Source: a virus (taxonomy: Duplodnaviria > Heunggongvirae > Uroviricota > Caudoviricetes). Taken from it: 39,177 bases of DNA. The translations under genes were made by a program, and so were the position numbers. Where the stretch lies: positions 1-39,177 of IMG/VR virus record IMGVR_UViG_2778261068_000002; one strand, given 5' to 3'. Below the pieces are notes generated by a model, which saw nothing but the letters and a program-made list of their open reading frames with translations, was not told where the DNA came from and ran no database searches. The first letter of the stretch is position 1, and each line of letters starts with the position of its first letter. Shown one piece after another: positions 1 through 39,177 of the stretch.

Positions 1-3000
1 ACCCCACGTACCGACTTTTTTCGGGAAGGCTTTTGATACAGCTTTAACGAAATCCCCTCTGACCTGGGTCGCCTCCAGCATGCCCTTAATCGTACAGTTC
101 TCACTTATCGTGACATTGTTGAGCGTCCCGGAGTTCGCATTCACGTTACCGCTGATATCAGCGTTTTTCGCCGTCAGCCGCCCGTCCGGTGTCAGGGAAA
201 ATGCCGGTGGATTTCCACCACTGGTAATGGTCGGGGCCGTCAGGCGCTTCAGGAACACGTCGTTCATAAATATCTGATTGCCCTGCGCCACAAACATCGG
301 CGTTTCATTCCCGTTTGCCGGGTCAATAAACGCGATACGGTTAGCGGCAACCAGAAACTGGCTCAGCTTGCCTTCTTCCGTGTCCTCCATGCTGAGGCCA
401 ATACCCGCGACATAATGTTTGCCGTCTTTGGTCTGCTCAATTTTGACGCCCCACATGGCATTCCACTTATCGTTAGCGTCCTGCCACTCTTTCGAAAACT
501 CCTCCAGTTTGCTGGCGTTATCCTCCGTCAGCTCGACTTTTTCCAGCAGCTCCTTGCCGAGATGGGATTCGGTTATCTGGCCTTTGAAAAAATCCAGGTA
601 ACCTTCCGCATCATCGCTCGCCTGACCGACAGCCTCCACGAATGCCGATTTGCCAACGGTGTTCACACTGCGGATATAAAAGTAATAATCATGGCCCGGT
701 TTGATATTGATACTGGCGGCTATCCAGTACATCCCCGCGCCAAGATAGCGCGCGCTGGTTTCAACCTGCCGGATATCGGCAATCCGCTTTTCCGAAAACC
801 AGAACTCAAACTGTACCGTCGGGTCATAAACCGCAAGATGCGGCGTGGCGGTTATCTGAAAATAGCCCGGCGTCAGCTCAATCCGAGACGGCGCTGCCGG
901 TGCGGCAATCCTGAACGATACCGACGCCGGGTCGCCCTGCTGTCCCCACGCATTTACCGCCCGGACTGTCAGCCTGTAGTTCCCTGGCGCCAGTTGCGTG
1001 AAGCGGTATGTGGTTTCCGCCGTCCGGGCCGTGCTGACCAGCCGCTCACTGCCGTCATCCGCTGCCACGGCCAGGCGAAGCAGGAAACTCACGCCCTTCA
1101 CCACCTTCGGCGTGTCCCAGCGGGCCAGTACCTGATACTCCCCGCTGTCTGCGGTGACTTCGGCAGTCAGGTGCTGCACCGCTGGCGGCGTGACACCATT
1201 CACCGTGCCGCTCTGGTCGCCGTCAAAGTGCGCCCCGTTATCCACGATGGCTTCTTTTTCCGGTACATGCTGCACGGCAGTGATGGCATACGTGCCGTCA
1301 TCGTTCTCACGGATACTCACACAGCGGAACAGGCGCTGACGCAACGTCGGCAACTTCAGCCCCCACACACTGTATTCTGCAACGCCGTCAGGAACCCGGC
1401 TCACTTTCACCTGCACGCCGTCGGTGACGGACTGGACCTCCACGCTGACCGGACTCCCCGTCCCGTCGACCAGGCTTATCAGCGTGGTGCCGGAGGCTGG
1501 CAGCGTGATTTCACGGTCGAGCGTCAGCGTCCGGGTCTGGCTGTTCACCGCCAGCACGCGACCACCGATGCTGATACCGGCATAGTCATCATCGCAGATT
1601 TCAATGACGTCTCCCGGCACATGGCGAAGCCCTTCTGCACCCACGCTGAAGTCCACGGTCTGCGTTTCCAGCAGTTCCGTTTTAATCAGCCACAGCCCGG
1701 CGCGGTGCGCCTGCCCCCGGCTGGTACAGCCAAAGGCATCCATCTTCGTGACGTTACGACCGTAACGGGCAATGGCCTGCGTGTCCTCCACAAGCTCTGT
1801 TGCCGTCTCCCAGCCGTTGTCCGGGTCAATCCAGTTCACCTCAACGGCATTATGGCGGTCCTTCAGGGCGCTGAAGCTGTAGCGGAACGGCGCGCCATCA
1901 TCCGGCATCACCACATTACTGCGGTTATAGGTCCACACCTTATCCGACGGTCGGTCCTGCACGAACGTCAGCGTCTGCCCGTTCCATACCGGCATACAGC
2001 GCATCGCCGAGCAGAAATCACTGAGCACATCCCACGCCCGGCGCTGCGTGGTCAGGTACGCATTACAGGTGATGCGCGGCTCCGTGCCGCCAAAACCATC
2101 CGGTACCGACTGGTCGCAGTACCGACCGATGGCATACAACGCCCATTTATCCACATCCGCCGCACCAAGACGTTTCCCCATGCCGTAGCGCGGGTGGGTC
2201 AGCATGTCCCACAGACACCAGGCCATGTTGTCGCTGTACGCTGGCCTGAACGTTCCGTCCCAGATACCGCTGTATTGCCGTGTTTGCGGGTTATAGTTCG
2301 ACGGCACCTGCAGAATGCGCCCGCGCAGATGATAATTACGGCTCACCTGCTGGCTGCCGAACTGCTCAGAGTCCACCTGCACGCCGACCAGTGCCGTGTT
2401 CGGGTAGCACTGCTTCACATCGATGATTTCGGTGTATGACGACCAGAGCGTTTTGTTCTGCAGCTGGTCTGTGGTGCTGTCCGGCGTCATCCTGCGCATC
2501 CTGATATTGAACGGTCGCGGCGGCAGGTTATCCACCACCACCGAGGCCAGATACTGTGAGGTGGTTTTGCCCTTAATGGTGATGTCTTTTTCCGTCACCC
2601 AGCCACCATTACGTTGTATCTGAACCAGCAGGCGAACTTCCGACGGATTCCGGTCCCCCTTTGAAGTGGTTTCCACCAGTGCCTGCACACCGAAGGTCAG
2701 GCGCAGACGGTCGATGTTTGCCGACGTGATGGTCCGGGTGAGCGGATTGTCATATTTTAATTCTGCACCGATAACGGTTTCTGAACCGGAGGATTCAAAT
2801 CCCTCCGGAGGTGTCTGCTCCTGCTCACCTGCCCGGAACACCACCGTGACACCGGAGATATTGGTATTCCCCTCACTGTCCAGCACTGGCGTACTGTTCA
2901 GCAGCACACTTTTTAATCCGTCCACCGGACCTTCAATCGGCCCTTCACTGATGGCGTCTATCACGCTCAGCAGCTGGGATGATTTCAGGTTGTCCTTCAC

Positions 3001-3039
3001 TTCGCGCGGGGTATGCCCCTTAGTGCCACCTTTACCCAT
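1..3039 (-). CDS. J: Tail tip host-specificity protein J (lambda gpJ-like); N-terminal ~1013 codons, C-terminal receptor-binding end lies beyond the window start
   Basis: Reverse-strand translation from ATG at 3039-3037 reads [41 protein letters not shown]..., matching lambda J as recalled; frame stays open to position 1. The + strand ORFs listed here in the track are antisense artefacts. Confidence 0.9.
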
Positions 3040-3172
3040 AGATAATTCCCGAAACAGTAATCAATTTTATGCGAACCATATAACGACCGCTTGCAACAAA
3101 AATGCATCTGTTGTATTTCATTTGTTAAAACTTAAATCACCTTGATTAACAACACGAAATGACGGGGTATTT

Positions 3173-3694
3173 ATGATAAAAAAAATACTTGCTGTAACTG
3201 CGCTACTTAGTGGAGCCGTAATGGCTGATACAATGACGATCCCTGTAAATCTCGTTTCCTCAGAAGGAGTAGGGAAAAATATAGGGGAAATAACTATTTC
3301 AGAAACCAGCTACGGATTGCTGTTCACTCCTCATCTGAAAGAACTACCACCAGGGTTACATGGCTTTCATATCCATGAAAATGCCAGTTGTGATCCCGGT
3401 CTGATTAATGGAAAAAAAGTGCCAGCTCTTGCTGCCGGTGGGCATTATGATCCTGAACAAACAAATAAACATCTTGGGCCGTACAATCCGGAGGGCCATC
3501 TGGGTGATCTACCAGCACTCTATGTCAACTCAGAAGGAAATGCAGAAAACCCGGTTCTGAGTCCAAAAATAAAAAAAATAAGCCAGATAAAAGAACGGGC
3601 GATCATGATTCATGCCGGAGGGGATAATCATTCCGATTCACCTGCTCCTCTGGGGGGTGGGGGCGCAAGACTGGCATGCGGAATAATTAAATAA
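3173..3694 (+). CDS. sodC: Periplasmic Cu,Zn superoxide dismutase (prophage moron)
   Basis: 173 aa with N-terminal signal peptide (MIKKILAVTALLSGAVMA) and Cu/Zn-SOD motifs GFHIHE, GGHYDP, HLGDLP, HAGGDNHSD, C-terminal RLACGII. Opposite strand to flanking tail genes; local sequence looks AT-rich by eye. Confidence 0.9.
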   Translation: MIKKILAVTALLSGAVMADTMTIPVNLVSSEGVGKNIGEITISETSYGLLFTPHLKELPPGLHGFHIHENASCDPGLINGKKVPALAAGGHYDPEQTNKHLGPYNPEGHLGDLPALYVNSEGNAENPVLSPKIKKISQIKERAIMIHAGGDNHSDSPAPLGGGGARLACGIIK

Positions 3695-37868: not shown

Positions 37869-37907
37869 TGGAGGTTTTTTCTTGCGTGTAATTGCGGAGA
37901 CTTTGCG

Positions 37908-38126
37908 ATGTACTTGACACTTCAGGAGTGGAACGCACGCCAGCGACGCCCAAGAAGCCTTGAAACAGTTCGTCGATGGGTACGCGAGTGCAGGATATTC
38001 CCACCACCGATTAAGGATGGAAGAGAGTATCTGTTCCACGAATCAGCGGTAAAGGTTGACTTAAATCGACCAGTAACAGGTAGCCTTTTGAAGAGGATCA
38101 GAAATGGGAAGAAGGCGAAGTCATGA
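37908..38126 (+). CDS. xis: Excisionase
   Basis: 72 aa MYLTLQEWNARQRRPRSLETVRRWVRECRIFPPPIKDGREYLFHESAVKVDLNRPVTGSLLKRIRNGKKAKS, essentially lambda Xis as recalled; overlaps the int start. Confidence 0.9.
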   Translation: MYLTLQEWNARQRRPRSLETVRRWVRECRIFPPPIKDGREYLFHESAVKVDLNRPVTGSLLKRIRNGKKAKS

Positions 38127-39177
38127 GCGCCGGGATTTACCCCCTAACCTTTATATAAGAAACAATGGATATTACTGCTACAGGGACCCAAGGACGGGTA
38201 AAGAGTTCGGATTAGGCCGAGACAGACGCATAGCAATCACTGAAGCTATACAGGCCAATATTGAGTTGCTATCCGGGAGCAGGCGTGAGTCACTGATAGA
38301 CAGAATTAAAGGCGCTGACGCAATCACTCTTCATGCGTGGCTTGACCGATATGAAACAATCCTCAGCGAGAGGGGTATCAGGCCGAAAACTCTACTCGAC
38401 TACGCCAGCAAAATCAGGGCAATCCGAAGAAAATTGCCGGACAAACCGCTCGCTGACATATCAACGAAAGAGGTAGCAGCAATGCTAAACACCTACGTAG
38501 CAGAAGGTAAAGCGGCTTCCGCAAAATTAATCAGGTCAACCCTTGTTGACGTTTTTCGTGAGGCAATAGCCGAGGGGCATGTGGCTACGAATCCGGTAAC
38601 AGCAACCCGCACAGCAAAGTCAGAAGTAAGGCGTTCAAGACTGACAGCTAATGAATATGTCGCGATTTACCATGCAGCCGAACCGCTCCCAATCTGGCTG
38701 AGGCTGGCAATGGATTTGGCTGTCGTTACAGGGCAGAGAGTAGGCGATTTATGCAGAATGAAATGGTCAGACATAAACGACAACCATCTTCACATTGAGC
38801 AGGGTAAAACAGGGGCTAAGCTCGCCATTCCGCTGACGCTAACGATTGACGCGCTCAATATCTCATTGGCTGATACACTACAGAAATGCAGGGAGGCCAG
38901 CGGCAGTGAAACAATAATTGCATCAACGCATCACGAACCGCTTTCCCCGAAAACAGTATCTAAGTATTTTACAAAGGCGAGAAATGCATCTGGACTCTCA
39001 TTTGATGGAGACCCGCCAACATTCCATGAACTGCGTAGCCTGTCGGCGAGGCTATACCGGAATCAGATTGGCGATAAGTTTGCTCAACGTCTTCTCGGGC
39101 ATAAATCAGATTCAATGGCGGCGCGGTATAGGGACAGCCGAGGGAGAGAATGGGACAAAATTGAAATCAATAAATGA
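38104..39177 (+). CDS. int: Tyrosine integrase (lambda Int family)
   Basis: 357 aa MGRRRSHERRDLPPNLYIRNNGYYCYRDPRTGKEFGLGRDRRIAITEAIQANIEL...; catalytic-domain motifs (HELRSL...LLGH...Y near C-terminus); stop codon is the last triplet of the window. Confidence 0.9.
   Translation: MGRRRSHERRDLPPNLYIRNNGYYCYRDPRTGKEFGLGRDRRIAITEAIQANIELLSGSRRESLIDRIKGADAITLHAWLDRYETILSERGIRPKTLLDYASKIRAIRRKLPDKPLADISTKEVAAMLNTYVAEGKAASAKLIRSTLVDVFREAIAEGHVATNPVTATRTAKSEVRRSRLTANEYVAIYHAAEPLPIWLRLAMDLAVVTGQRVGDLCRMKWSDINDNHLHIEQGKTGAKLAIPLTLTIDALNISLADTLQKCREASGSETIIASTHHEPLSPKTVSKYFTKARNASGLSFDGDPPTFHELRSLSARLYRNQIGDKFAQRLLGHKSDSMAARYRDSRGREWDKIEINK

Follow-up and report, generated by a model that had tools for sequence, protein, structure and literature searches.

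A mosaic lambda-like prophage with an HK022-type integrase, seen from a contig end in gene J to the integrase stop codon

Gene order and edges of the window

The sequence analyzed here (IMG/VR virus record IMGVR_UViG_2778261068_000002, positions 1 to 39,177; "the window" below always means this whole stretch of 39,177 nucleotides (nt)) carries gene J followed by the tail, head and terminase genes, cos, the lysis genes, Q, the nin region, P and O, cII and cro, and then cI, N, recombination genes, xis and int. This is the gene order of a lambda prophage, with cos internal, and the genes from J to cro lie on the minus strand except where marked. All 55 called open reading frames (ORFs) are uninterrupted, no lambdoid module is lacking other than the end of J, the side fibers and the cargo, and there is no insertion sequence (IS) element, which bears out the original prediction that the window holds a near-complete prophage. 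Gene calls and Pfam assignments were taken from identical or near-identical contigs (e.g., loci L025 and L034) and were supplemented by Pfam and PHROG scans of the window ORFs. Taken as a whole, the account developed here, of an ordinary, apparently intact lambda-like prophage of mosaic composition that is visible in all but the distal end of J, cut on the left by a contig end and predicted to be inserted at ibsB/sibB, is one in which we place considerable confidence.

The source of the window was reached by look-up of the exact 1024-amino-acid (aa) tape-measure protein (6078-9152, minus strand). The window corresponds to bases 2-39178 of the draft contig PTRR01000002.1 (573,795 bp; assembly GCA_002965665.1), and locus L025, which is bases 1-19153 of that contig in reverse orientation, aligns to window 1..19152 without gaps at 100.000% identity. 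The contig continues for ~534 kb past base 39178. The two edges of the window are of different kinds: the right edge alone is a true window cut, and the left edge is the end of the assembly contig. Since the left edge is a contig end, extending the window by 5 kb is impossible leftward and workable only on the right. An exact 60-mer of window positions 1-60 had no match in GTDB representative genomes, so that no species representative is the source.

The right boundary was drawn at the stop codon of int. As originally described, the last triplet of the window is this stop (TGA, 39175-39177), which closes an ORF of 357 aa that starts with ATG (38104..39177, plus strand). A sibling assembly, GCA_012304025.1, has 100% identity to window 3510-19152 and 99.98% identity to window 25648-39177; over the latter interval the sole differences are a pair of substitutions, of which one is at 28943, and a single-base change in the length of a T run. 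The sibling contig runs on from int into the chromosomal genes mdtABCD-baeS, and it breaks elsewhere than the source contig, in sodC at window position 3510.

The truncated end of gene J

Gene J, encoding the tail tip and host-specificity protein, occupies window 1..3039 on the minus strand, where its N-terminal 1013 codons begin with an ATG at 3039; ahead of this ATG lies the stop codon of the upstream frame, and minus-strand frame 0 has no stop for 1020 codons down to base 1. Window 1..3994 aligns to positions 6829..10822 of L009, an Escherichia albertii prophage whose J (6454..9867) encodes 1137 aa, and in this alignment the part of J past base 1 measures 375 nt, or 124 codons plus the stop. 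Aligning phage cdtI from base 1 leaves the identical 375 nt missing, so that both comparisons agree with the earlier estimate that J runs off the left edge with roughly 120 codons missing. Pfam matches on the same J in L025 comprise FNIII-A_GpJ, Phage-tail_3, Ig_J, Ig_J_second and Phage_Tail_Tip. Ig_GpJ_C (PF12421), present in relatives of 1137 aa and 1159 aa, had no Pfam match in the L025 J; the C-terminal receptor-binding end formed by this domain is absent from the visible gene.

The truncation of J comes from the contig ending there, not from where the window was drawn. The contig break was probably caused by further copies of the J 3' end and the fiber genes in other lambdoid prophages of that genome. 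The source and sibling assemblies are broken at different repeated prophage genes, a pattern that would be expected of short-read assembly. An alternative is that the element is a truncated, defective remnant in which deletion or rearrangement removed the 3' end of J, the fibers and the far attachment site. Nothing beyond J is available, as such a remnant would have it, and degraded relatives do occur: L001 contains large deletions as well as IS insertions, L011 has been reduced to a sodC-tfa-nleG remnant, and E. coli 2013C-3342 (discussed below) points to prophage-mediated rearrangement. We nevertheless judge a remnant quite improbable, given that the break coincides with the contig end and shows no join to different DNA, that the sibling breaks at another repeat in the way short-read assembly gives, and that every ORF up to the break is intact.

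The region past J can be described from relatives. In L009, L010, L013, L015 and L016, which share the same J 3' end, J is followed by a fiber gene of 401-437 aa and an 89-aa Phage_fiber_C gene, and next by type III effector genes (nleG family, a SopA-like gene and a Peptidase_M85 gene). A 440-aa ORF in L013, L016 and L011 is 87% identical at the aa level to NleA of an E. coli prophage. An E. coli example, in strain Z1323CEC0013, reads J-lom-stf-tfa-nleG-nleA-att-ibsB, with its junction ~5.8 kb past the end of J. Going by these relatives, the second attachment-site copy would not be near the left edge but ~5-10 kb beyond J, after the side fibers and effector cargo. The original prediction had rightly placed the attachment junction, the distal tail-fiber region and any cargo beyond J outside the window.

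Integrase and attachment site

The integrase at 38104-39177 (plus strand; Pfam Arm-DNA-bind_1, Phage_int_M, Phage_int_SAM_1 and Phage_integrase on identical copies) is a tyrosine integrase of the HK022 type, and the excisionase gene that precedes it (37908-38126, plus strand) is of the same type. Together, int and xis are 96.7% identical to HK022 at the nt level over 1302 nt (X51962.1, AF069308.1). The HK022 records annotate a 227-bp phage attachment site (attP) that begins 7 nt before the int stop, with sib after it; carried over to the window, this homology makes the final 7 nt of int the first bases of the attP P' arm.

We read the int-side junction in 11 loci that extend past int, ten of them with a 100%-identical Int (L001-L008, L033 and L034, the last from the sibling assembly) and the eleventh, L022, an E. 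coli copy. All 11 continue after the int stop for ~70 nt as an HK022-like P' arm, up to AAATAT(G/A)CAACTTA, and then depart from HK022. After CAACTTA, HK022 reads TTCACCT AAAGGATGAC (its overlap, TTCACCT, was read from the HK022 record), versus CCTTATT TAAGGCCCCTTCCTCGGGAGGGGC in the 11 prophage loci. The int-side junction is CAACTTA-CCTTATT-TAAGGCC, and mdtA starts 343 nt past the stop of int. With the junction core ~70 nt past int in 11/11 relatives, the earlier placement of the attachment site just past the right edge is upheld.

An empty site in E. coli DH1 reads CATCATG ACCCTTT CCTTATT TATGGCC CCTTCC, directly upstream of the ibsB start codon, and is placed between yegL/ibsA and mdtA. In E. 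coli Z1323CEC0013 both junctions surround one prophage, and the far junction is ACCCTTT CCTTATT AAAGGATGACAAAAT. An attP rebuilt from the junction halves of L034 and L023 has the core CAACTTA-CCTTATT-AAAGGAT, and for 336 nt it is colinear with attP and sib of HK022, at 86.6% identity. The relatives thus carry HK022-like attP arms and core sites, with C' (CAACTTA) and C (AAAGGAT) identical to HK022. The int-side junction occurs in 85 of 5,426 complete E. coli genomes and the J-side junction in 91 of the 5,426. A BLAST search of E. coli genomes with the HK022 core region did not locate the bacterial attachment site (attB).

Both the ibsA and ibsB repeats of DH1 (L021, positions 1499 and 1828) carry ACCCTTT CCTTATT, the right half-site (AAAAGCC and TATGGCC, respectively) being their one difference. 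The host therefore has two or more adjacent candidate sites of nearly equal fit, of which ibsB, not ibsA, is the one used in every junction seen.

These observations support a simple model of integration. As in HK022 and lambda, attP and attB would share an identical 7-bp overlap across which Int exchanges strands; with CCTTATT in place of TTCACCT, the phage would be directed to ibsB/sibB, a type I toxin-antitoxin locus. Beyond base 39177, the int-side junction should consist of ~70 nt of P' arm, CAACTTA, CCTTATT, host TAAGGCC with the SibB terminator, and mdtA. For the source contig, this predicts CAACTTACCTTATTTAAGGCC and then mdtA within bases 39179-39600 of PTRR01000002.1, the right flank of int reading TTTTATTTTGATCAATAATGACC...AAATATGCAACTTACCTTATTTAAGGCCCCTTCCTCGGGAGGGGC with the mdtA ATG 343 nt after the stop. 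The far junction is expected as ACCCTTT-CCTTATT-AAAGGATGAC, followed by the P arm and sib/tI, several kb beyond J, with a ACCCTTTCCTTATTAAAGGATGAC junction adjoining ibsB/yegL. Since the sibling prophage is essentially identical to the window, the case for placing the source prophage's attachment site and insertion locus here is strong.

The main competing location is the canonical HK022 site between torS and torT with the overlap TTCACCT, as used by HK022 and in ~5% of E. coli genomes. Integrases of the HK022 type do occur at torS-torT (PMC6814406), int and xis are close to those of HK022, as given above, and no junction lies inside the window. A torS-torT insertion predicts TTCACCTAAAGTGC and then torS past int; insertion at ibsB/sibB predicts CCTTATTTAAGGCC and then mdtA. 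All ten displayed loci with an identical Int that extend past int, the sibling assembly among them, are flanked by mdtA, and their overlap is CCTTATT, never TTCACCT; all 11 junctions on the int side, and the E. coli one on the J side, show CCTTATT at ibsB/sibB-mdtA. We therefore consider a torS-torT location very improbable. A circularly permuted phage genome or a plasmid-prophage, which could also give an internal cos and an int at one end once a circular assembly was cut, has a virtually negligible probability as the nature of this sequence: the source contig has a length of 573,795 bp, int is followed by mdtABC in the sibling contig, and in a free phage int would precede a complete attP with P arm (AAAGGATGACAAAAT...) and sib, as in HK022.

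Several points weigh against insertion at ibsB/sibB-mdtA or limit what it implies. The junction evidence comes from the sibling assembly and other loci with an identical Int, not from the flank of the source contig. The 574-kb contig and the sibling's mdtABC flank point to integration; neither of the two junctions falls within the window, and the contig lacks the J-side one. The J-side junction was read base by base in one locus only (L023). The predicted attP core CAACTTACCTTATTAAAGGATGAC had no match in IMG/VR viral contigs, and neither a free phage nor a viral contig was found to have this core intact. In E. coli 2013C-3342 (NZ_CP027766.1), the junction halves lie 1.57 Mb apart, at 535,460 and 2,107,137, which suggests a large rearrangement by recombination between prophages. 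Intact ORFs are no proof of inducibility, and the far junction and cargo of the source cannot be asserted, no sequence being available beyond J. In 2013C-3342, only 24 kb separate the int-side junction from another lambdoid prophage, which sits at ybhC, and a region fetched from this genome held a different prophage, at ybhC.

Structural genes and lysis cassette

A moron between I and J, sodC (3173..3694, plus strand), encodes a periplasmic Cu,Zn superoxide dismutase (PF00080, Sod_Cu; phrog_1975, "superoxide dismutase precursor," E 2.6e-75). The ~0.68-kb sodC insert is absent from most E. coli prophages having this I-J region. Window 1-4500 was found contiguous in no complete E. coli genome, the best match (95% identity, 85% coverage) being without sodC. 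The exact SodC protein occurred in 337 blocks of our collection, several E. albertii prophages included, and a similar sodC arrangement was seen in an E. coli prophage at ybhC (L070).

The tail module (3737..11638, minus strand) has clean reading frames and Pfam assignments made on L025. It comprises I (3737-4309), K (4306-5049), L (5054-5752), M (5752-6081), the tape measure H (6078-9152), which matches orf13 of phage cdtI in length, T (9124-9453), G (9462-9848), V (9908-10651), U (10662-11063) and Z (11060-11638), all on the minus strand. The head and packaging module (11650..18652, minus strand), likewise assigned by Pfam on L025, is 94-97% identical at the nt level to phages cdtI, Tritos, phi458 and mEp460. 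Its minus-strand genes encode a Gifsy-2-type head-tail protein (11650-11925), a cement protein (11918-12241), a ClpP-protease/capsid fusion (12328-14355), the portal (14300-15808), a 70-aa joining protein (15808-16020), the large terminase (16017-18116) and a small terminase of the DUF1441 family (18125-18652). The cos site probably lies at 18840..18860, a location drawn from the ends of database records: the linear Tritos and cdtI records begin at the base aligned to ~18848.

The lysis cassette (19195..21789, minus strand; Pfam Phage_lysis, Phage_lysozyme, DUF1327 and Phage_holin_2_1) contains Rz (19195-19659) with an embedded Rz1 (19257-19439), a lysozyme (19955-20488), a 243-aa DUF1327 gene (20838-21569) and a holin of the phage-21 type (21574-21789), all on the minus strand. 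The DUF1327 gene splits the cassette between holin and lysozyme.

Late control, replication, immunity and early-left genes

Four tRNA genes on the minus strand (22081..22390; Gly-TCC, Thr-TGT, Arg-TCT and Met-CAT) were called by ARAGORN and gave four matches to Rfam RF00005. They are followed in window order by a 249-aa ORF (22534-23283, minus strand) that encodes a multi-pass membrane protein of unassigned function; phrog_1521 was its sole match, with none in Pfam or PADLOC. The Q antiterminator (23455-24144, minus strand) has 229 aa (PF06323, E 3e-93). A 257-aa reading of Q was discarded, its GTG start being wrong and no record of that protein existing. The Q-to-S interval holds only the 249-aa ORF and the four tRNA genes, with no stxA or stxB; these occupy the place directly downstream of Q where Shiga toxin (Stx) phages carry stx. 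PADLOC found no defense-system match in seven unassigned ORFs.

A second moron, at 24629..25588 on the plus strand, encodes an LpxR-family lipid A 3'-O-deacylase (PF09982 on the homolog in L001). Flanked by the nin region and Q, it is read in the direction opposite to the genes on either side, and the phage 434 record annotates the same gene as "outer membrane beta-barrel lipid A deacylase." The nin region, replication genes and cII (25800..31752, minus strand) have clean frames and were assigned by Pfam on L034 (99.98% identical). The nin-region genes, on the minus strand, encode a Ser/Thr phosphatase, NinG, NinF, NinX, NinE, NinD, an MT-A70 methylase and NinB; between NinB and P lie a 108-aa ORF and a ren-like ORF, also on the minus strand, and P (29826-30527), O (30524-31423) and cII (31456-31752) complete this minus-strand block.

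The immunity switch (31862..32848) consists of a cro-like helix-turn-helix (HTH) gene (31862-32077, minus strand) and a cI-like HTH/S24 repressor gene (32153-32848, plus strand), separated by a 75-bp divergent operator region. The T-run length change between window and sibling falls at ~32122, within this cro-cI intergenic operator region (32078-32152). A longer cI ORF of 244 aa was rejected: its look-up gave just two short Logan contigs, and the real start is the later ATG at 32153.

The early-left operon (33197..37868, plus strand), assigned by Pfam with clean frames, carries N (33197-33505), Nmad5 (33567-34190), cIII and kil, a Rad52-family annealase (34941-35648), SSB (35649-36164), the anti-RecBCD protein Abc2 (36178-36474) and then DUF1382, TraR/DksA and small ORFs, all on the plus strand. 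The annealase/SSB/Abc2 set (34941-36474) is as in P22-like phages and replaces lambda exo/bet/gam. Seven close relatives with an identical Int (L002-L008) have the exo/bet/gam version instead.

Host and implications

Beside these prophages, the mdtA flank shows just 91-93% identity to each of 5,423 E. coli records, and several complete genomes with an identical Int or sodC are published E. albertii strains, among them L008 (CP030781), which is E. albertii 07-3866 (PMC10673567). Given this divergent flank and these carriers, the host is likely E. albertii. A search of representative genomes with Int returned mostly lambda int, plus one partial match in E. whittamii. The lambda Int (76% identical to the query) lay on contigs of ~48.4 kb and on fragments (L038-L062) in representative genomes of unrelated bacteria (Shewanella, Pseudomonas, Oceanobacillus, Neobacillus, Pseudoxanthomonas, Bradyrhizobium and others), and these are most simply explained as contamination of the assemblies with lambda DNA.

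Our data suggest that E. albertii, and ~1.6% of complete E. coli genomes, have an HK022-type integrase that uses the ibsB/sibB-mdtA site. The HK022 overlap may be any sequence so long as it is the same in attP and attB (PMC7736782), and use of the ibsB/sibB-mdtA site with another overlap fits this laboratory finding that the overlap is freely reprogrammable. A stronger proposal is that the lineage represents a natural retargeting of an HK022-type integrase by a change in the 7-bp overlap alone, which inserts the prophage between the toxin gene ibsB and the terminator of the antitoxin RNA SibB and rewires the toxin-antitoxin locus, and whose P'-arm promoter might alter mdtABCD-baeSR; in this full form we think it rather unlikely to be right. 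The promoter effect is speculative, an outward P'-arm promoter acting on the mdtABCD-baeSR efflux and stress operon by analogy with HK022 at torS, and the SibB terminator, which lies between the junction and mdtA, counts against it. A limited literature search found no description of a retargeted HK022-type module.

The observation that the window ends at int on one side and within J on the other is correct but largely housekeeping, and the retargeted attachment module is a modest, plausible by-product of following it up. The practical value of the observation lies in showing that the receptor-binding end of J, the side fibers, any effector cargo and the attachment junctions are absent for technical reasons. 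Since the cause on the left is a contig end, a wider window would recover nothing there, and a closed assembly is needed.

Comparison with known phages

By sequence comparison, the prophage is a four-part mosaic of cdtI/mEp460-type structural genes, a lambda/434-type early region, P22-style recombination genes and an HK022-type int-xis cassette. In the structural module it resembles the lambdoid siphoviruses cdtI, mEp460, Tritos and phi458, which have the ClpP-protease/capsid fusion head, cover 83-88% of window 1-20000 at 94-97% nt identity, and share both the gene order from the small terminase to J and a matching tape measure of ~1020 aa. Unlike the window, these phages are without sodC between I and J, and their early regions and integrases are different.

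The early region follows lambda and 434 in O, P, nin, LpxR (in 434), cII, cIII, kil and the Q-type layout, with ~91-92% nt identity in patches. It differs from them in its immunity region and in having the Rad52-family annealase, SSB and Abc2 instead of exo/bet/gam, and lambda Int is more distant from the window Int (about 78% nt). Loci L029-L031 have an early region 99.75% identical to window 25649-37328, but carry a lambda-type int (81% nt) beside ybhC. The switch falls at window 37328-37345, just after TraR/DksA, and ybhC is the lambda attachment region. Such an arrangement looks like a clean swap of the int/att cassette between otherwise identical phages.

With the Stx1a phages, the prophage has only the int type in common. 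Effector-carrying lambdoid prophages of enterohemorrhagic and enteropathogenic E. coli and of E. albertii ("exchangeable effector loci") likewise have sodC between I and J, and phage-borne sodC is known from O157 prophages; unlike those effector prophages, the window contains no effector gene.

The closest relative of the integration module is HK022 itself, which shares with the window an Int of 357 aa and strand exchange across a 7-bp overlap (PMC7736782). The Int core sites, as read in relatives of the window, are the same, and only the overlap differs (TTCACCT in HK022, CCTTATT in the window lineage). The bacterial site of HK022 is the torS-torT intergenic region (PMC6814406), whereas that of the window lineage would be ibsB/sibB, between yegL and mdtA, and the rest of the window genome is unrelated to the HK97-like structural genes of HK022.

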